64,000 bases of DNA from positions 8,264 through 72,263 of IMG/VR virus record IMGVR_UViG_3300027798_000035, one strand, 5' to 3'. Shown in pieces: positions 7,583-64,000 of this stretch. Position numbers and translations under genes: made by a program. The notes under the pieces were generated by a model. The model was given only the letters and a program-made list of their open reading frames with translations, was not told the origin of the DNA and ran no database searches. Each line of letters begins with the position of its first letter. The first letter of the stretch is position 1. Source of the DNA: a virus.

Positions 7583-8796
7583 TTTGTGGTTCCCTTTGTG
7601 AGTTGATAATTAATTACTGCTTGCTTGAGCGACGGTGCAAGTTCACGCAAGTTCTTGCGAGCAATAACATCTGCTGGTATTTCTACTCCAGCGTCAACCA
7701 AAATATTACGCACAGGCTCAAGGTCATTGTCAAGCATTGTCGTGCAGTTTGTTAAAAGAAACGAGGCTGACTGGATCAGGGTGTCAAACATGGGCATGTC
7801 GTCAAATGACACCTCAGCAATATTCACCAACAATTCGGGGTACCTGTAGGCAACATCCATTCCTCGTCTCCAAATAATCTTTTGCATTTTTTGATTAATG
7901 CCATCACCCCACGGGAGGTCCTCGCCATGCTCAAAGTCATCGGACACCCATCCCAATATTGGGGATTTCTGCGAGACCCCCGTCATTTTGGACATCATGC
8001 TAATTTGGACTTCTCGGGAACAGAAAGTTTTCCATGGGGATGCAGATTCCATGTTTCGTGACAGGGCAAAGAATTCCTCGGTCATCTTTGTTAGGTCAGA
8101 GACCTTGACTCCAGCGGTAATCAGTCGCTTGATCTGAGCGCGGAATGCTGGTCGTTCACCCACGGGGGTTGTCTTCCCACCGACCCTGCGGGCGGTGAGT
8201 TCAAAATGATCTAGGACTTGTGAAATTTCACTGGTGGTTTTCTTTAGGGCGATGTTCTCATCCCACGGTCGGTCATTGTCAGGGTCGGCACCAAAAGTGG
8301 GCATAGGTTCTCCTTGTTGTTTTCTCGGGCGAAGCCCACAAAGGAAAATGTCGTTAGACATTTTCCTTTGTACTATATCTAAAGTACTATCTATAGAGAC
8401 GCGTTGTCCCTGCTCACAGCCTCGTGGGGGGTTCACTGGTGACCCCCCTGGTAGGTCACTGGTGACCCCCCCTTTGTTTAGGGTCAGGTCACTGGTGACC
8501 CCCCTCTTAGGCTTGCGGTAATTGACAATTATGCTCTTCCCGCGGTTTGCCGAGAGTATGGTTGAGGTTACCACTTTATGTAATTCTAACCACTTAATTG
8601 ATCGTTTAACCGTAGACTGTGACATACCTGAAATGTTCGCAATGTCATCAATTGTCATGATCGGATTACCATCAAAAGGAGTCAGTCGGATGATGCACAT
8701 GAGAATATGGGAATGGGTCGGATTGCCCTTTTTAACGATCAAATCAATCGCCCATACTGGGACCGCCGCAAACGGTCCGTTAAGTTTTCTAGACAT
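7579..8796 (-). CDS. Replication initiator with N-terminal winged HTH
   Basis: AAGGAG RBS; TIDDIANISGMSQSTVKRSIKWL HTH; internal repeats; precedes the DnaC-like gene. Confidence 0.75.
   Translation of the reverse strand: MSRKLNGPFAAVPVWAIDLIVKKGNPTHSHILMCIIRLTPFDGNPIMTIDDIANISGMSQSTVKRSIKWLELHKVVTSTILSANRGKSIIVNYRKPKRGVTSDLTLNKGGVTSDLPGGSPVNPPRGCEQGQRVSIDSTLDIVQRKMSNDIFLCGLRPRKQQGEPMPTFGADPDNDRPWDENIALKKTTSEISQVLDHFELTARRVGGKTTPVGERPAFRAQIKRLITAGVKVSDLTKMTEEFFALSRNMESASPWKTFCSREVQISMMSKMTGVSQKSPILGWVSDDFEHGEDLPWGDGINQKMQKIIWRRGMDVAYRYPELLVNIAEVSFDDMPMFDTLIQSASFLLTNCTTMLDNDLEPVRNILVDAGVEIPADVIARKNLRELAPSLKQAVINYQLTKGTTK
8431..8504. repeat. Three iteron-like repeats (GG)TCACTGGTGACCCCCC; putative replication origin
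   Basis: Copies at about 8431, 8454 and 8487; core GGTCAC-TG-GTGACC is palindromic. Confidence 0.75.
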
Positions 8797-57076: not shown

Positions 57077-57809
57077 CCCACAGGCTCAGTTGTTCAGATT
57101 TAGGCTCTGCATTAAGATTTGGTGCAGATCGCCCCATCGCTTGACGAATACGAGCCTTTGCGTGGGGTAGTCGTGAGTTTAAGTGTTGGCGCGGAGTTTG
57201 GTGACTGTATGGGTAACGATCAAGTTTGTTTGCTGCATAATTAAACCCAATACCATTATCCTCTCCCTTTCCTGGCATATCCTCATCAGAGATAGCACCA
57301 GATTTATGTAATTTACTAACTAATGCATAACTATGAGAAGAAAGATTGCTAGATGGTTTTAAAGACCTACCAGTTGTAGTTGTAGAAGCGATGTCAGCCA
57401 TACCTACTAAGTTCATTGCGGATGTTTTACCAGCCAAACTGTCGCGGGCGTATAAATCAGTTACCTCAGATCGTGCTGGCCTATGGTAAGTTCCAAACAT
57501 TGCTAATTGCTCCCCTGACTGAGCGGGGCGAGTCATACCCTCACGCCAAGATGCGGCACGATCATAATCATGCGTTCTCTGACCCTCAGCAATTAAGGTG
57601 TCTTCAGCCGTATCAGGGGTAAAGGTAGTCATATATGTGCTGGTAACATCTGGCTGATGAAAAATACTAGCCATAGCAATGGCTTGACCATCTTCATCAT
57701 GTGCAAAGTACTCATCCGACCCACCATGCTTGGCACCATGTGACACATAGTCGGATGATCTATTTTGCTCCCGATCACTGGGTGGTGCATAGCGTGAGTA
57801 GCGTGTCAT
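57069..57809 (-). CDS. GNAT-like paralog family member 2
   Basis: YFAHDEDG...LYARDSLAGKTSAMNL...; EQLAMF, C-terminal EQLSLW. Confidence 0.65.
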   Translation of the reverse strand: MTRYSRYAPPSDREQNRSSDYVSHGAKHGGSDEYFAHDEDGQAIAMASIFHQPDVTSTYMTTFTPDTAEDTLIAEGQRTHDYDRAASWREGMTRPAQSGEQLAMFGTYHRPARSEVTDLYARDSLAGKTSAMNLVGMADIASTTTTGRSLKPSSNLSSHSYALVSKLHKSGAISDEDMPGKGEDNGIGFNYAANKLDRYPYSHQTPRQHLNSRLPHAKARIRQAMGRSAPNLNAEPKSEQLSLWDD

Positions 57810-58606
57810 TCAAAACCCTCCAGTTGTAGTTGCTCAGCCTTGGGTTCAGTATTAAGGTTTGGCGCAGATCGTCCCATTATTTGACGGATACGAGATTTTG
57901 CGTGGGGTAGTCGGTCATCAATACTAATAAGTTCGTCATCATTAAACATATCACTATGACGACGATTAAGGAAGTATTCAGCATCATTCCTTGTAATGTC
58001 ATTAACACTGTCCGGACCAATGTTGTCAGGCATATCCTCATCAGAGATAGCGCCCCTTTGATGTAAATGATTTACTAGTCCAAGACTATGTTCTGACAAA
58101 CTGTCAGATGGTAATAAACTACTACCAAGTGCATCTCTAGTGGCGTTGTCAGCCATTCCTAGTAAATTCATTGCGGCACTTTTACCACGAAGACTGTCAC
58201 GGGCATACATAATATCTACTTCTCTACGAGCAGGTTTATGATCTATACCAAACATGACTAACTGTTCACCAGGTCTGGCGGGAACAGTACCAGTACGACT
58301 AGTAGAAGTATCATACCCAAGAGCGCCGGGGCGAAGGGGATGACGGTCAGGGACATCTGTGCGCTCTGAATCGGCAATAAGTTTGTCTTTATTAACAGTA
58401 AGACCAGTCATATGGGTATCTGTCCTACCCGGGTGTTGTACTACTTCCACAAATGCCTGTGCTACACCGTCTTCATCATGTGCAATATAAGTATTAGTAC
58501 CTGCGGTTGCATGGCTGAATTGGCTTTTGCGAATGTTGCTTTTTGTAGAGTCATGATCCATTTGATATTGTGAATGATCGCCATGTATCCGTGAGTACCT
58601 AGTCAT
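57806..58606 (-). CDS. GNAT-like paralog family member 1
   Basis: YIAHDEDG...MYARDSLRGKSAAMNL; EQLVMF, C-terminal EQLQL. Confidence 0.65.
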   Translation of the reverse strand: MTRYSRIHGDHSQYQMDHDSTKSNIRKSQFSHATAGTNTYIAHDEDGVAQAFVEVVQHPGRTDTHMTGLTVNKDKLIADSERTDVPDRHPLRPGALGYDTSTSRTGTVPARPGEQLVMFGIDHKPARREVDIMYARDSLRGKSAAMNLLGMADNATRDALGSSLLPSDSLSEHSLGLVNHLHQRGAISDEDMPDNIGPDSVNDITRNDAEYFLNRRHSDMFNDDELISIDDRLPHAKSRIRQIMGRSAPNLNTEPKAEQLQLEGFE

Positions 58607-59163
58607 TTGTTCACATCCAATGGATTAACGGCAGTCAGACCGTGACCGCCAAAGCGTACACCCTCTGCGAATACATGTGATCGCAGATTAGCGTTTGTTC
58701 CTACTACTTGGGTACCCATAAACTCATCACCCAATTGGTACTTCTGAGTACCAGGAATTCGTTCCCGTAGGCGCACAAGACCTGGTTTAGTGGGAACATT
58801 AAAGATTTTCTGATTGTCTAACAATACGGCACCCTTGCCACGGAACTGGACTGGGGTCTCTTCACCCTCAAGGTCCTCCACTGGCCTGCCCTTAACAAAC
58901 ATATTGCGGGTCTTAGCGCCATTATTATTAATAGACTGCTCTAACTGAAACTTGTCATATTGGAGGTGCGGTTGAGCCAGTTGACCAGCGGTGGTGTGCC
59001 CGAGCACCCGTTCTCCCAATACGCCCTTAGCATTTCGTACTTTGCCACCAACTGAATAGATAGGAAACCCTTGTTCCTCACTAGCGGGGCTATGTTTATG
59101 GATAGATACTTCATTGCGGTCCGTTAACTCAGACCAATCAATCATGTTTAGTTTCTGTCCCAT
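58603..59163 (-). CDS. Hypothetical protein
   Basis: TAAAAT 6 nt before ATG; coupled to the next gene. Confidence 0.65.
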   Translation of the reverse strand: MGQKLNMIDWSELTDRNEVSIHKHSPASEEQGFPIYSVGGKVRNAKGVLGERVLGHTTAGQLAQPHLQYDKFQLEQSINNNGAKTRNMFVKGRPVEDLEGEETPVQFRGKGAVLLDNQKIFNVPTKPGLVRLRERIPGTQKYQLGDEFMGTQVVGTNANLRSHVFAEGVRFGGHGLTAVNPLDVNK

Positions 59164-59185
59164 AGAACTATTTTACCTTAAATAG

Positions 59186-59314
59186 TTAGTAGATGCCCTC
59201 ACAACAGGCGTCTCTTTGCCCACAATCAACGCATTTATAGTGTGCATGCTCAGGACGCAATTCTCCGCCACAATAGACACACTGTGTGGAGGTATCGCAT
59301 TGATCAGTAGGCAT
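59186..59314 (-). CDS. Cys-rich zinc-ribbon mini-protein (42 aa), not in ORF track
   Basis: MPTDQCDTSTQCVYCGGELRPEHAHYKCVDCGQRDACCEGIY. Confidence 0.7.
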   Translation of the reverse strand: MPTDQCDTSTQCVYCGGELRPEHAHYKCVDCGQRDACCEGIY

Positions 59315-59341
59315 AATTAAGCGGCAAATTTTTACCCTTAC

Positions 59342-59737
59342 TCAGTCGTATTCGCCTATCGCGATTCGCAACGGGCTGATGTTGTGGCGGTTCGCAACGG
59401 CATCACGGATATCATCAACACCAGAAAGGTGATTGTTATATTCCGTTTTTGTCAATTTTGTTAGGTTTGGTCCACCCTTGTCACGGCCTGTCCGCAAATC
59501 ACGGATTACATTGTAGGATTGGCTAACAGACACTGGGGTACGAATATCAGCGCCCAGATAGGCTCGTTCTTTTCCTAACGCGGGATGAATCGCACGGAAG
59601 TGGTTTTCGTACAATTCAGAGCCTTCATTGAAATTATTAAAATGATTCGCCATATCCTCTACATAATCTTTTCGTTTGTCATCTAGATGGATTGCGAGTA
59701 GTCGCTGGATGCGGGGTAATTCTCTGTATCGTGCCAT
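59342..59737 (-). CDS. Hypothetical protein, paralog of 59748..60125
   Basis: GAGGAG RBS; ELPR...LDD.R...FR..H...G.DI..PV. Confidence 0.7.
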   Translation of the reverse strand: MARYRELPRIQRLLAIHLDDKRKDYVEDMANHFNNFNEGSELYENHFRAIHPALGKERAYLGADIRTPVSVSQSYNVIRDLRTGRDKGGPNLTKLTKTEYNNHLSGVDDIRDAVANRHNISPLRIAIGEYD

Positions 59738-59747
59738 GATGTTCTCC

Positions 59748-60125
59748 TCAGCGGTAGTACTTGTAAGCGTGACGGATATCGTCGCGTTGGTACTTATTGT
59801 CCTGACCTGAGTCACGATTCTGTCGGTAGTTCTGAAGCATTTCCCCTGCGTCACTCTCTTCTACGGGGTCTTCAATGTCTGAGCCAGTATCTCGGCGGTA
59901 TGGTCCTGCGATGGAGTGCGTCCCACGAAATTCTTCCTCAGCCTCACCGTTCTCAGGGTCGTCGTAATTGTCGTCGTTACCATATTCTGCTTGGTGTTCC
60001 TCCCGTGAATCGTCCAAGTATGAACTAAGAGCGGCACTCAAGCGGGGTAGTTCAGAACGGCCCTTAGGTTGGAACTGTTCGGACAGGTGTGCTGGACGCT
60101 TTGCAATTGCTTTTTTCATAGCCAT
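59748..60125 (-). CDS. Hypothetical protein with HLSEQF tag
   Basis: AAGGAG RBS; paralog of 59342..59737. Confidence 0.7.
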   Translation of the reverse strand: MAMKKAIAKRPAHLSEQFQPKGRSELPRLSAALSSYLDDSREEHQAEYGNDDNYDDPENGEAEEEFRGTHSIAGPYRRDTGSDIEDPVEESDAGEMLQNYRQNRDSGQDNKYQRDDIRHAYKYYR

Positions 60126-60151
60126 GGGAGACTCCTTATCGGGTAATGCTT

Positions 60152-60449
60152 ACTATTATATATCAGAGTTACTTGCCAGGTACAGGAGGACCGTCATTGT
60201 CCTGACTCCAGTCGTAATACGAGGCACTACTAACTGGTGGCTTAGATGCTTTTTCATTTTCAGACTTGGAGGTTATATAAGAACCTGTCAATGTCGCTCC
60301 AAGAAATAGTGCTCCTCCAATGAGCAGACCACCGTTCCCCCCAGAAGGGTATGGAATGCTGGTTCGTCCTCTGGTGGTGACTGGTCCGCCTCTAAATTGT
60401 TCGTTAGATAAGTTTCTGTGTTTTCCCATACTGACTATTATATATCAGA
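60152..60449 (-). promoter_or_regulatory. Two identical 16-bp promoter elements TCTGATATATAATAGT (60152-60167, 60434-60449)
   Basis: Exact repeat containing TATAAT; a variant TCTGATGTAAAATAAGT lies at 61306-61322. Confidence 0.7.
60169..60429 (-). CDS. Small single-TM protein with NLSNEQF tag
   Basis: TATAAT 7 nt before ATG; LLIGGALFLGATL. Confidence 0.65.
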   Translation of the reverse strand: MGKHRNLSNEQFRGGPVTTRGRTSIPYPSGGNGGLLIGGALFLGATLTGSYITSKSENEKASKPPVSSASYYDWSQDNDGPPVPGK

Positions 60450-60450
60450 A

Positions 60451-60900
60451 TTAGTTCTCGCTATAGCCAAAGTACTTTTTTGGTCTTCCGTACATATTCT
60501 TATACTTATCAGTGGTGTCATACATAGGGTTACTGTCATGGATCACGGGAATATCTACCTGATGACCTCTTTCTTCCAAATCTAAGGCAACTGAGAGGCG
60601 GTGGTGACCATTACCCATACGGAACTTAGTTGTGTGTGGGGCTGTCTCTAGGACAATATGGTTCATAACACCGTCAGTTTCAATACCATCGTGTAATCCT
60701 GAATCTATAGCCTCTCCCAGTTTCTCATTATGGAGGTCGCTGTAGGGGTAATCGCGTGGATCATCAATACCTTCATCATCAAGAAAACTGTGTAGTTTGT
60801 TCAAAATCTCATGTGGACGCATGAACATCTGCAACTGTTCAGGGTTATTGCCAGGATTTCTAGTCACTTTGGCGAATTGTTTGCTGATGTGTGCTCTCAT
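60451..60900 (-). CDS. ParB/Srx-like domain protein with HISKQF tag
   Basis: GIETDGV..I...MGNGHHRL.VA...IPV. Confidence 0.75.
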   Translation of the reverse strand: MRAHISKQFAKVTRNPGNNPEQLQMFMRPHEILNKLHSFLDDEGIDDPRDYPYSDLHNEKLGEAIDSGLHDGIETDGVMNHIVLETAPHTTKFRMGNGHHRLSVALDLEERGHQVDIPVIHDSNPMYDTTDKYKNMYGRPKKYFGYSEN

Positions 60901-61302
60901 TCAGTCACCAGGTCTTCCTGAGTACATACCCTCTGTCCCCGAGATGTATTCGTCATCATCAGGCTCGTAGGCAGTTCGGTCATAATACTTATCCTCAAAT
61001 TTTTCAGCCATATGGGTGGAGGCTGGGTGGATAGTGCGTCCCCAGTCAATAAATGACTTGGGGTAGCGGTCGTACAGGTGCTGCATGAGTGCCTGACCGT
61101 GACCCTGCCCCTCGCGGTGACTCTTTAGGTAGTCCACCTCAATGCGCGATGTTGGGTCCATCAGCGGATCGTTGTGGTGATCATATGTGACCGTCGCCAA
61201 ATGGGAACTGTCGGGGTTAGATAGGGTCAACTTATGTGAACCCTTGCCCATTTTTTCATGAATGACATGAAATTGAGTGCTCATATGGCGCATAGGATTC
61301 AT
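60901..61302 (-). CDS. GNAT-family acetyltransferase with HMSTQF tag
   Basis: IEVDYLKSHREGQGHGQALMQHL (acetyl-CoA binding Q/RxxGxG-like). Confidence 0.75.
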   Translation of the reverse strand: MNPMRHMSTQFHVIHEKMGKGSHKLTLSNPDSSHLATVTYDHHNDPLMDPTSRIEVDYLKSHREGQGHGQALMQHLYDRYPKSFIDWGRTIHPASTHMAEKFEDKYYDRTAYEPDDDEYISGTEGMYSGRPGD

Positions 61303-62069
61303 ACCACTTATTTTACATCAGAATAGGGCTACATTTGGGCGAATTAGGGGTACCCCATCTGAGCGTAGTACCCCCTCGCTCCTCAGAATAGGGCTATTTG
61401 GCAGTTGGGCAGTGCTTGGCTCCTCGCCTCTACCCCCCTACCGATTTCCCGACCCCACTTAACCATGGGGGGGTCACCCCCTGTTCCCCTGTGGGACTGT
61501 CCCCTGCTCACACGGCTAGTTGACTGAGTGGCGCGCATAAACCCCAATGAAATCAGGTGTATTTGCCCATTATGCAAAGTAGTTGCAAATGCAACAACCT
61601 CTATAAATGGGGCTACCTCGGGGCGTCGCGCGGTGGTTGGGGGATAGGGGTAGGAACTGACGCTAGGCGTCTCGTTATCCACAGATAAATCATTGTTATG
61701 ACATATCCCCTGCATATCGGTATCAAATGACCACAACACTACGGCACAGCCCATTTAAATCGCTTCTGACAGCCTCTACCCCCCTTCTGCCCCTACCACT
61801 CATTTCCTCCCTTCTAAGCCCTCAGAGGGAAAGAGAGGGCGCGCTCCGTGTACCCAAAGCCCCTGCTCAGTGGGCACTTTTTAGCCATTTCTAACCTAAC
61901 GAGTGAATATGCCCCTGTCCCGAGTCGGTACAGCCACAAAATGCCTGCATTTACCCCCATTTGAAAAGAAATCTAAAGTTTTTTTATGTGCTCTGACCAG
62001 CACTTTTGTACCAAATCCTTGGCAGACATTTGGCTCAGAGCGATATCACTTGGCATGATCTGAAGGTAA

Positions 62070-62809
62070 GGAAAACGAGCACCTGAGACATCTCACTGCT
62101 CCGACACTGAACTTTGACAAACAGCGAAAAGTGCTCAGACCGACAGGTAGTTCTGCCCCACCCAGTGGGAACGCCAGCCAGCAATACGGCGGTGAACGAA
62201 ATGCGAAAGCAACCTGAAAGTCTGCCCACCTAGTACGACTCACCACACCATGAGACCACACCTCTGATCTGACCTAGTCAGCCATCAACGGGTGTCTGTG
62301 CAGAATGAACCTCCCACCAAACGACAAGCCAGTAGCCATGACAGTTTGCCAAGGTAAGCGTTCAGTGTCCCCTCGGGGACTCGGTAGCAGACACTCAGCA
62401 GAGTAGAGACTCAAACACTCAAGCATCACAGGCTCACGCCGTGATGGTTCTCCCCAGCAGATGTTCTGCATTACGGGAGCGACCGAGATGCGCCCCAGCG
62501 ACGCTGGTGAGTGTGAGAGCGACCGCCGAGCCGATGACCACTGATGATGTTCACCAAGATCAAGTGACAAGCGAATGCACCGCCACCTGTGCCTGCTTGA
62601 GAGTCCGATGGATAACCCGAAATACAAACAACGATGTATCGGCGCCCAGCAAGCGCCAAGGTTGGCGAGCCGTTCACAAAAGATTGCAGTGCATCCAATC
62701 CCCTCGGGTGAAGCAAGGGAGGGGAGTCCACCGATCTTGGACTCATACATGATCGTCGCAATTTGGGCAGGCGCCTCGGGCGTAGGGTTTCAATCCCACC
62801 TGTCCGCCA
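62070..62809 (+). ncRNA. Putative large structured ncRNA ending in a tRNA-like domain
   Basis: No RBS-supported CDS; many hairpins and several 8-10 bp long-range complementarities; 3' end ...CCTGTCCGCCA. Confidence 0.6.
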
Positions 62810-62849
62810 TGTCCCGACTCGGGACAGTAGCAACCAAAGGAACCACCAC

Positions 62850-63605
62850 ATGAATCCAGTTGAGCAGATATTCGCAAACGCCTTTTCAATCACCACCACC
62901 AAGGAGAAGCCAGTGAAAACCACCACCAAAAAAGCCCGTACCCACACCATCAAGCCTGTCGCTGTTGAAGCGCCTGCTGTCGCTGAGATCATTGAAGCGC
63001 CCGTTGACATCGTGGCAGTCACCGCCTCGGCAGTTGCCGAAGTCATCAACTATGACGGCGCCGTTGAGAATGCCAAGTTGGCGCTCCGCTCGGCATGCAT
63101 CGCATCCAGTGTCGCCGTTGACGCTGGTGTGTCGCTCCGTACCCTTGAGGCTGAGTCAAAAGTTGCTGGCAAGAAGATCGGCAAGTCAACCTTCAGTCGC
63201 TACGCCAAGGTCGGCGCTCAGTTGATCGTTGACCCGTCGCTTGATGCCGACGACCTTCTCAACAAGGTCTACAAGGCTGAGGTCAAGGCTCGCAATCAAG
63301 CCGAAAAGGCTAAGGCAAGCAAGGCAAGCGCCGAGAGCGACACCGACAGCACCGACAGCACCGAAGCAGTGGTCGCTCTGACCCTTGCCGAGATCGTCGC
63401 TGACCTCACCGAGAATGGCGCCGAAGCCATCGGTGGCATCGTTGCCAACCTCGTCGCCTCGCTTGACGATGACCACTCAGTGTTCGCACTGCTCGCCGTG
63501 GCACTGCTTGAGGCGAGCGCCAACACGGCTCCGCTTGACGCCGACGAGACCAAGCAGGTGCTCCAAGTGTGCGCCATCACGGTCGGCGTTCAGATCGGCG
63601 CCTGA
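62850..63605 (+). CDS. Hypothetical Ala-rich protein with possible HTH
   Basis: AAAGGA RBS; GVSLRTL...IGKSTFSRY; strong C-ending codon bias. Confidence 0.75.
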   Translation: MNPVEQIFANAFSITTTKEKPVKTTTKKARTHTIKPVAVEAPAVAEIIEAPVDIVAVTASAVAEVINYDGAVENAKLALRSACIASSVAVDAGVSLRTLEAESKVAGKKIGKSTFSRYAKVGAQLIVDPSLDADDLLNKVYKAEVKARNQAEKAKASKASAESDTDSTDSTEAVVALTLAEIVADLTENGAEAIGGIVANLVASLDDDHSVFALLAVALLEASANTAPLDADETKQVLQVCAITVGVQIGA

Positions 63606-63691
63606 CCAACCTCGGGGTGGCTGTCCCGTGTCGGGACAGTCGCCCCAACCATCACTATCGCCAACCACCACCAACGCCTGAGGAGGCAACC

Positions 63692-64000
63692 ATGGACATT
63701 GACTACACCAAGACCACCACCGTGACACACAACGGCTGGGCATTCGTCAAGAACGCCCGCAACGAAAAGTTCGTATGGCTCCAGTTCACTGGTGTCCAGT
63801 CTTTGTACGACAACGAGGGCGATTACCTCTTTTTTGTTTTTGAAGGAGTCAATCCCGAAGAGTCCTTCAAGGGCAACGCCATCATCCATATTGACAATGT
63901 GCACGACATCTTCTACCTTGAAGAGCGCCCAGTGACATTGCTCGCAGAGAACACCGACATCACTGTCATCGGCTTTGACACCGTGCAGAAGTTAGATCGG
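63692..64000 (+). CDS. Hypothetical protein, partial (runs off window end)
   Basis: AGGAGG RBS; MDIDYTKTTTVTHNGWAFVKNARNEKF... open to 64000. Confidence 0.7.
   Translation, partial: MDIDYTKTTTVTHNGWAFVKNARNEKFVWLQFTGVQSLYDNEGDYLFFVFEGVNPEESFKGNAIIHIDNVHDIFYLEERPVTLLAENTDITVIGFDTVQKLDR

Follow-up and report, generated by a model that had tools for sequence, protein, structure and literature searches.

The stretch of DNA analysed here (the window) comprises 64,000 nucleotides (nt), positions 8,264 to 72,263 of IMG/VR record IMGVR_UViG_3300027798_000035, and is the last 64 kb of a 72,263-base-pair (bp) viral contig. Its source is a freshwater myovirus of about 91 kb, recognized by Pfam matches of its − strand genes to DNA polymerase A, portal, terminase, sheath and baseplate J; its complete relatives measure 91–92 kb and form a family of lake-water phages. 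Between the leftward (− strand) genes and a rightward early module is a gap of about 790 nt (62057–62849). The + strand genes start at ATG 62850 and, in a relative, consist of small open reading frames (ORFs) followed by an SNF2 helicase. Closing the gap, 41 nt ahead of this start codon, is a 45-nt element at 62765–62809 on the + strand, which is the subject of this study.

The element reads GGGCAGG-CGCCTCGGGCG-TA-GGG-TTTCAAT-CCC-A-CCTGTCC-G-CCA, letter by letter as in a preliminary description of the window, and the fold given there is the minimum-free-energy (MFE) fold of the isolated 45-mer (−19.5 kcal/mol, ensemble frequency 0.69). This predicted fold is composed of a 7-bp closing stem, with G3:U as its third pair and its strands separated by 27 nt, a hairpin of four pairs closing a 3-nt loop, a stem of three pairs topped by the 7-nt loop UUUCAAU, and a free 4-nt GCCA tail. 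The element and its surroundings comprise the following features.

62120–62809, + strand: candidate large structured non-coding RNA, with the element as its last module (conservation, covariation).
62632–62758, + strand: preceding 3′ sub-domain, with closing helix 62632–62640/62751–62758 (RNAalifold helix 30).
62759–62764, + strand: 6-nt linker CAAUUU from the preceding domain to the element; position −1 is U.
62765–62771, + strand: 5′ strand GGGCAGG of the closing (‘acceptor-like’) stem, paired with 62799–62805 in the MFE fold.
62772–62782, + strand: hairpin 1, CGCC-UCG-GGCG, four pairs, in place of the D and anticodon arms.
62783–62798, + strand: T-like arm, with a U-A closing pair, a bulged A, a GGG/CCC stem and the UUUCAAU loop.
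62799–62805, + strand: 3′ strand CCUGUCC of the closing stem (MFE fold, homologue pairs).
62806–62809, + strand: single-stranded tail, a discriminator-like G followed by CCA.
62810–62826, unstranded: TGTCCCG-ACT-CGGGACA, a 17-bp palindrome or hairpin that adjoins the tail (pattern count).

Viral-contig searches repeatedly returned only six contigs besides the window's own. A metagenome search returned 16 stretches, three of which are homologous (L025, identical to the window, L031 and L022), the other 13, L018 among them, being chance matches. In total, the gap region was found in six IMG/VR and three metagenome contigs, which represent seven distinct sequences. L033 is unrelated coding DNA, the ‘phages’ collection held no match to 61500–64000, and 18 stretches from a genome-contig search, mostly Erythrobacteraceae, share merely a word of 20–27 nt with the window and provide no evidence of a host.

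The element occurs once in every homologous region that extends far enough. Among five close sequences (the window, L003, L012, L004 and L008), all 70 pair cells are standard (14 pairs in five sequences) and seven of the 45 columns vary: two form a single pair, three lie in loops, and the remaining two are the discriminator and the central base of ‘CCA’. The variable pair, in the middle of the T-like stem, is G-C in the window and L003, C-G in L012 and A-U in L004 and L008, with a covariation score reached by 13 of 500 shuffles; the closing stem and hairpin 1 are invariant in these five sequences. In the sixth variant, L031, the same site is occupied by an 88-nt element with a predicted four-way junction, located behind the same GUCGCAA anchor plus 3 nt. 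Its closing stem, GGGUAG/CUACCC, has a compensated change at pair 4 (C-G to U-A) and a change from G:U to G-C at pair 3, and with pair 7 lost retains 6 bp. Within the junction are a longer hairpin around the same CCUCGGG centre, an extra hairpin and a UGGG/CCCA hairpin with the loop UUCGCAA, and the ACCA tail is followed by the same palindrome.

Folded alone, each of the six variants forms the closing stem with a probability of about 1.0 and leaves the 4-nt tail free. In all six, G-C forms pair 1 and a pyrimidine (U or C) occupies position −1, the linker being CAAUU followed by U or C in the five close sequences and CAAGUC in L031. The tails are GCCA (window), ACCA (L003, L008 and L031), ACGA (L012) and GCUA (L004), with a purine discriminator in all six; the G remarked on in the preliminary description in place of the A of alanine tRNA holds for the window and L004, the other four variants having A. 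The encoded CCA described there is likewise found in four of the six, with CGA in L012 and CUA in L004. The 7-bp acceptor stem, which is the MFE structure in the window, is kept in the five close sequences and reduced to 6 bp in L031. Conservation across homologues is thereby borne out for the closing stem, including compensated changes in one of its pairs and in the T-like stem, and falls short for CCA. Judged by this comparison, the element is a real RNA module, a conserved three-way junction whose predicted fold appears to have been selected. We consider the element real because it is conserved in homologues, and not from single-sequence statistics.

Preceding the element is a much longer conserved stretch. 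No ORF that the window has in the gap is kept open across the homologues, whose lengths differ by numbers not divisible by three, so that the region 62057–62849 is apparently non-coding. Nucleotide identity of the gap to the window is 92% in L003, 81% in L004 and its copies and 77% in L008, and neighbouring proteins in the same contigs share merely 52–68% and 59–64% of their amino acids. For the alignment of seven sequences, RNAalifold predicts 167 pairs on the + strand, 39 of them with compensatory change; shuffled alignments yield a mean of 21.0 compensated pairs, with none of 500 reaching 39, and sliding the partners by 1–3 columns as a control leaves 2–5. In the 10-bp helix 62290–62299/62387–62396, seven pairs are rewritten in L012 and L004, and in the helix that closes the preceding sub-domain one pair is U-A in three sequences and U-G in three. 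The region is modular. Its core, at about 62238–62690, is constant, and L022 has an unrelated 5′ domain (about 62100–62235). In L031 the 3′ domain is replaced, and this sequence lacks about 62690–62750, yet has the larger tRNA-like junction. Hairpins of the form C-UCG-G are abundant throughout.

Part of the stretch is contained in six RNA sequencing runs, four of which, from four studies, were compared over 61700–63300. These data are assembled contigs and carry neither strand nor RNA ends. All five RNA-library contigs lie within the gap (62238–62758).

62238–62597: RNA contig, with a 120-nt 5′ extension of the L022 type.
62248–62591: RNA contig.
62424–62606: RNA contig.
62450–62601: RNA contig.
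62621–62758: RNA contig, run X17.

The contigs fit an abundant RNA from the central domains. Three of them end within 62591–62606. No contig from the four runs covers 62765–62809 or the flanking genes, holes in cover of this kind proving nothing.

Our tentative proposal is that the element is a tRNA-mimicking 3′ module that recruits the host tRNA end-processing machinery to free a large RNA. A structured non-coding RNA of about 700 nt would be transcribed from the + strand where the early rightward module begins, with the element at its 3′ end. The module would mimic the acceptor/T-arm half of a tRNA through its G1-C stem, the pyrimidine at −1, the purine discriminator, the mostly CCA tail and the U-C-purine loop, and the host enzymes would take it for a precursor tRNA. 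RNase P would then cut between 62764 and 62765 and detach the small module and the downstream early message from the large RNA, the last predicted helix of which ends at 62758; the tail and stem would give a defined end. The X17 contig stops at 62758, the end of that last helix, which is no more than a weak hint. We infer both the RNA ends and the contact with RNase P.

The parallel is the maturation of MALAT1 at mascRNA. According to PMC4919922, MALAT1 and MEN-beta are cut by RNase P at tRNA-like 3′ structures, and this cut gives the long RNA its mature 3′ end; bacterial RNase P is reported there to process non-tRNA substrates that include phage regulatory RNAs and OLE RNA. We count these precedents as support for a processing module. 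That the element might be a signal for processing the upstream RNA had been suggested in the preliminary description, and we retain this reading because of the element's position, at the 3′ terminus of an extended non-coding region that is conserved. Maturation of the upstream RNA remains, in our analysis, the most economical reading.

Several observations weigh against it. The 45-mer is not exceptionally stable (fold z-score −1.62, with 14 of 200 shuffles folding equally well or better), and the homologue elements with their flanks are unremarkable in this respect (z from −0.16 to −2.77). Both strands were scanned for a 7-bp stem with at most one G:U pair and a 25–60-nt interior, followed by N and CCA, with 100 second-order Markov random sequences of 64 kb as background. 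The window holds 29 such sites against a mean of 27.4 in the random sequences. When an abutting hairpin of at least 3 bp with a 6–7-nt loop is required next to the 3′ strand, the element is the only site in the window against a random mean of 1.95, and 84 of the 100 random sequences contain the fuller pattern at least once. Within one sequence, the pattern is not beyond chance. Comparison has its own weak point, since 13 of the 14 pairs are invariant in the five close sequences, so that support for the closing stem comes from the one divergent sequence, L031.

Searches for known RNA families also count against the proposal. ARAGORN at default settings found no tRNA or tmRNA (transfer-messenger RNA) gene in the window, in six homologous loci or in the excised elements, a miss that the preliminary description had expected; with thresholds lowered to 50–70% its calls did not coincide with the element and were discarded. 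Rfam gave no match at gathering score anywhere in the window, the tRNA, tmRNA and large-RNA families included. The tRNA model RF00005 had no match at E ≤ 10 in 61900–63000 or 62740–62835, nor at E ≤ 1 in three related phage genomes, and tmRNA was found neither by Rfam nor by ARAGORN with permuted forms included (window and six loci). The matches that did appear are noise: RydC and the PhotoRC-I hairpin, the only two in 61900–63000 at E ≤ 10; a partial tRNA-Sec match in L031 (12.4 bits, E 7.7, against a gathering score of 47); an RsmW match on its opposite strand (24 bits against 52); chrB-a on the − strand; and a weak CRISPR-DR56 match at 62787–62818 on the − strand (19.4 bits, E 0.074), which relies on ATTGAAAC/GGGATTGAAAC, the complement of the T-like loop, a motif not kept in homologues. 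A covariance model of the 45-nt form (R1), run over 129,844 bases from 10 sources, recovered the five source sequences or copies, one per genome, together with two noise matches of 11.8 bits; it found no second copy and missed the L031 variant.

The likeness to a T arm is incomplete as well. The tRNA T-loop motif is U54-U55-C56-R57-A58, in a 7-nt loop on a 5-bp stem. Of the T-loop-like arm put forward in the preliminary description, the U-C-purine core stands in all six variants and the 7-nt loop in the window and L031; the loop is 6 nt long in the other four and begins with A in two, L031 has C at the position corresponding to A58, and the stem is 3 bp plus a U-A pair past the bulged A, not 5 bp. 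Two of the six variants do not keep CCA. No RNA ends were seen at 62765 or 62809 in the assembled contigs, which cannot show ends.

A plausible but less probable account is that the element is an ordinary terminal three-way junction, either of the large RNA or of a long 5′ leader belonging to the early operon, the tRNA likeness being coincidental. The chance frequency of the motif in random sequence, the lack of a match to a tRNA model, the loose T-loop signature and the variable CCA are all as this account would have them, as are the wealth of similar C-UCG-G hairpins in the region and the short distance to the start codon at 62850. Set against it is the pair of architectures at one site. The 45-nt and 88-nt forms share a GGG-started stem, a U-C-purine hairpin beside its 3′ strand and a tail of purine-C-N-A, which is more than a generic junction needs.

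The processing module is also to be weighed against an improbable role of the element as an alanine acceptor, or as a decoy for enzymes that act on acceptor ends, such as alanyl-tRNA synthetase (AlaRS) or defence toxins directed at the CCA end or acceptor stem. Minihelices of acceptor stem and T arm can be alanylated (PMC11392972), and there are defence-linked toxins that target the 3′-CCA end and also inspect the acceptor stem (bioRxiv 10.1101/2024.07.05.602228). Of the six variants of the element, four offer a single-stranded NCCA tail and five have G3:U70. These five share one invariant stem and therefore amount to a single observation, and L031 has G3-C70. The AlaRS element read from G3:U70 in the preliminary description is accordingly not upheld. 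With G-C in L031 and CCA lost in two of the six variants (L012 and L004), alanine identity appears unlikely; the discriminator, moreover, is G in two of six. Having no anticodon arm, the element could not decoy anticodon nucleases, which excludes that form of the proposed decoy for tRNA-targeting defences. A CCA-adding enzyme domain (PF01743) or tRNA was found in none of three related phage genomes. As a candidate member of the tRNAs, the tmRNAs or the alanine identity set, the element was rejected by the tests made.

Equally doubtful is the view that the closing stem represents a single state of a switch, or that it is non-native, its 3′ strand pairing with 62142–62148 or its 5′ strand with 62220–62228. 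The first pairing weighs against a local module, as it replaces the closing stem in the single-sequence MFE fold of 62120–62830 on the + strand: GACAGGU at 62142–62148 is perfectly complementary to ACCUGUC at 62798–62804 (seven Watson–Crick pairs). In L031 the altered 3′ strand can still form 5 bp, in a shifted register, with the unchanged GGUAG of the 5′ region. In the original register, three of the seven long-range pairs break in L031, and the local stem keeps six of its seven. Such a pairing would close the whole RNA end to end. The second pairing had been proposed in the preliminary description. GTCTGCCCA is indeed located at 62220–62228 and can form nine pairs with TGGGCAGGC in the window; it is changed in L012 and L008 with no compensation in the invariant 5′ strand and is absent from L022, in which the whole 5′ domain is replaced. 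Neither long-range pairing is chosen by RNAalifold, and on comparative evidence the local stem appears better supported than the long-range pairing.

The element is probably expressed from the + strand, and there is little likelihood that the region acts instead through the − strand, within a long leader that precedes the leftward genes, or at the level of DNA as an operator, origin or attP core. In favour of the − strand, and against a + strand module, are its lower consensus energy (−134.4 versus −116.8 kcal/mol) and better single-sequence z-score (−2.57 versus −1.66); it also has 31 compensated pairs, a number that none of 500 shuffles reach. Counts of G:U versus A:C cells are ambiguous as to strand, the + strand being A/C-rich. 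The + strand has the larger number of compensated pairs (39 versus 31), the higher covariation score (0.211 versus 0.171) and the more favourable covariation energy term (−7.5 versus −1.4 kcal/mol). Conserved G:U pairs with Watson–Crick neighbours, in columns 290–398 and 452–486 of alignment A4 and at pair 3 of the element, also favour the + strand, since they become A-C mismatches on the other; in the closing stem this mismatch would affect five of six variants. The − strand consensus hairpin over the element (helix 3) is broken in L031. The adjoining 17-bp palindrome is operator-like. Compensatory changes in stems are unexpected for an operator. An attP core is unlikely, as tyrosine and serine integrases (PF00589 and PF00239) were each found in none of the three genomes, two of which are at least 98% complete.

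Further candidate roles were rejected: an attP core carrying a host tRNA 3′ end (no integrase, the 5′ stem strand also present, and a T-like stem that is not tRNA-like), a retro-element primer or Y RNA (the protein partner, a reverse transcriptase or TROVE protein, absent from the three genomes) and part of a tRNA island (no tRNA gene or CCA-adding enzyme in any of the three).

Among known systems, the closest to the element are mascRNA in placement and the tRNA-like domain of tmRNA in anatomy. Like mascRNA and menRNA of MALAT1 and MEN-beta/NEAT1, it is a tRNA-like fold placed right after the body of a long non-coding RNA: the last helix of an ORF-free, covarying region ends at 62758 and is followed by a 6-nt linker and then the element. 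Those RNAs, unlike the element, are eukaryotic and nuclear, adopt a full cloverleaf-like fold and receive CCA later; the present module belongs to a phage, has two arms (four in L031) and mostly encoded CCA, and its cleavage is predicted only. The tRNA-like domain of tmRNA has an acceptor stem with G3:U70, a T arm, no anticodon arm and an NCCA end, for which the element in the window has counterparts (the T arm being T-like only), and differs in that its stem brings together the two termini of the whole molecule, in its tag reading frame and in the G:U pair that the element loses in L031. The tRNA mimic of Y RNAs is internal, not 3′-terminal. Bacterial Y RNA (YrlA) offers a non-coding RNA with a tRNA mimic (PMC4201824). 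Ro60 is the partner of Y RNAs, and the TROVE domain was found in none of the three phage genomes.

The non-tRNA substrates of RNase P, among them 4.5S RNA, the C4 antisense RNA of P1/P7 and OLE RNA, are a precedent for bacterial RNase P maturing phage regulatory RNAs and a large structured RNA (PMC4919922); they are not described as two-arm tRNA mimics at the 3′ end of an RNA of about 700 nt, and they have no sequence or model relation to the element. In the 3′ tRNA-like structures of plant RNA viruses, too, a viral RNA terminates in a mimic of tRNA whose tail is CCA-like (PMC7749636 and PMC5723415). Those are ends of RNA genomes with pseudoknotted acceptor stems and are aminoacylated, whereas the element is encoded by a DNA phage and has a plain stem, and its charging is doubtful. 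GOLLD and ROOL, which occur in phages and prophages, are ornate RNAs of very large size and unknown function that often lie near tRNA islands, and the linker region of GOLLD sometimes holds tRNAs (bioRxiv 10.1101/2024.12.08.627333). The present RNA resembles them in its length of about 700 nt, phage-borne and lake-derived nature, conserved core and swappable ends, and differs in having no Rfam match at E ≤ 10, in belonging to phages without tRNA genes and in carrying a mimic rather than a tRNA. Among the papers listed by the literature searches, none was found to describe this RNA or a mascRNA-like module in a phage. One of the 8,495 structured-RNA candidates from IMG/VR catalogued in PMC10690425, with motifs of 29–151 nt, might overlap the region.

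Upstream of the structured region are a conserved palindrome, TGAGA-CA-TCTCA (62084–62095), and a TTGACA box (62114–62119). Both are kept in all six sequences that reach this far, including L022, in which the next 130 nt or so are unrelated, and 62084–62119 may be a regulated start region of the rightward RNA. A consensus scan found no sigma-70 site on the + strand, no −10 box matching TTGACA and no terminator after the element. The 17-bp palindrome that follows the tail belongs to a small set: GTCCC-N5-GGGAC is present at two places in the window, 62811 and 63623, where 0.06 would be expected, the second copy of the palindrome (63622–63638) being placed after the next gene, with a near-copy around 61916. 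It recurs between + strand genes in L003, and one of its pairs covaries (helix 37; A-U in four sequences, G-C in two).

The last ORF before the gap, with 27 codons (61973–62056, − strand, start at 62056), is a candidate for the first leftward gene; L031 and L022 retain its first codons, where two of the changes are synonymous and two are replacements. The G+C content of 62001–64000 is 0.56, against about 0.46–0.48 over the preceding 10 kb, and the AT skew is strongly positive (+0.158) exactly at the strand switch; the rightward module thus differs in composition. Pfam assigned no family at E ≤ 0.01 to the ten ORFs beside the element (eight leftward, 57806–61754, and two downstream), and among seven downstream ORFs in L003 its sole match was the SNF2 helicase. 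With PHROGs, none of the six proteins tested near the element had a family, and of four distant structural proteins, which complete the ten tested, three matched tail-fibre, endolysin or unknown-function families. Homologues of the downstream protein number 57. Domains of reverse transcriptases, TROVE/Ro proteins, CCA-adding enzymes and integrases were found in none of the three related phage genomes.

For this family of phages, the alanine-identity idea can be set aside. Should the tRNA likeness prove coincidental, the element would still be a conserved terminal domain of a large RNA. It would set the 3′ limit of a large, newly recognized structured RNA that occurs in freshwater metagenomes and in the RNA libraries of several studies, and defined ends are the first requirement for expressing such an RNA for probing or cryo-electron microscopy. 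On a bolder and distinctly speculative view, which we hold to be unlikely as a whole, lake phages carry an ornate RNA of about 700 nt with an exchangeable tRNA-shaped 3′ ‘handle’, either two-armed (45 nt) or four-armed (88 nt), that hijacks host RNase P and 3′-end enzymes to release and cap the RNA. MALAT1–mascRNA would thereby gain its first counterpart in bacteria or phages, and there would be a hint as to why GOLLD and ROOL accompany tRNAs, with tRNA shapes serving as processing or docking handles. If the processing module is real, a mechanism of mammalian nuclear long non-coding RNAs and plant organelles would extend to phages, and the long-noted association of giant phage RNAs with tRNAs would have a concrete reason.

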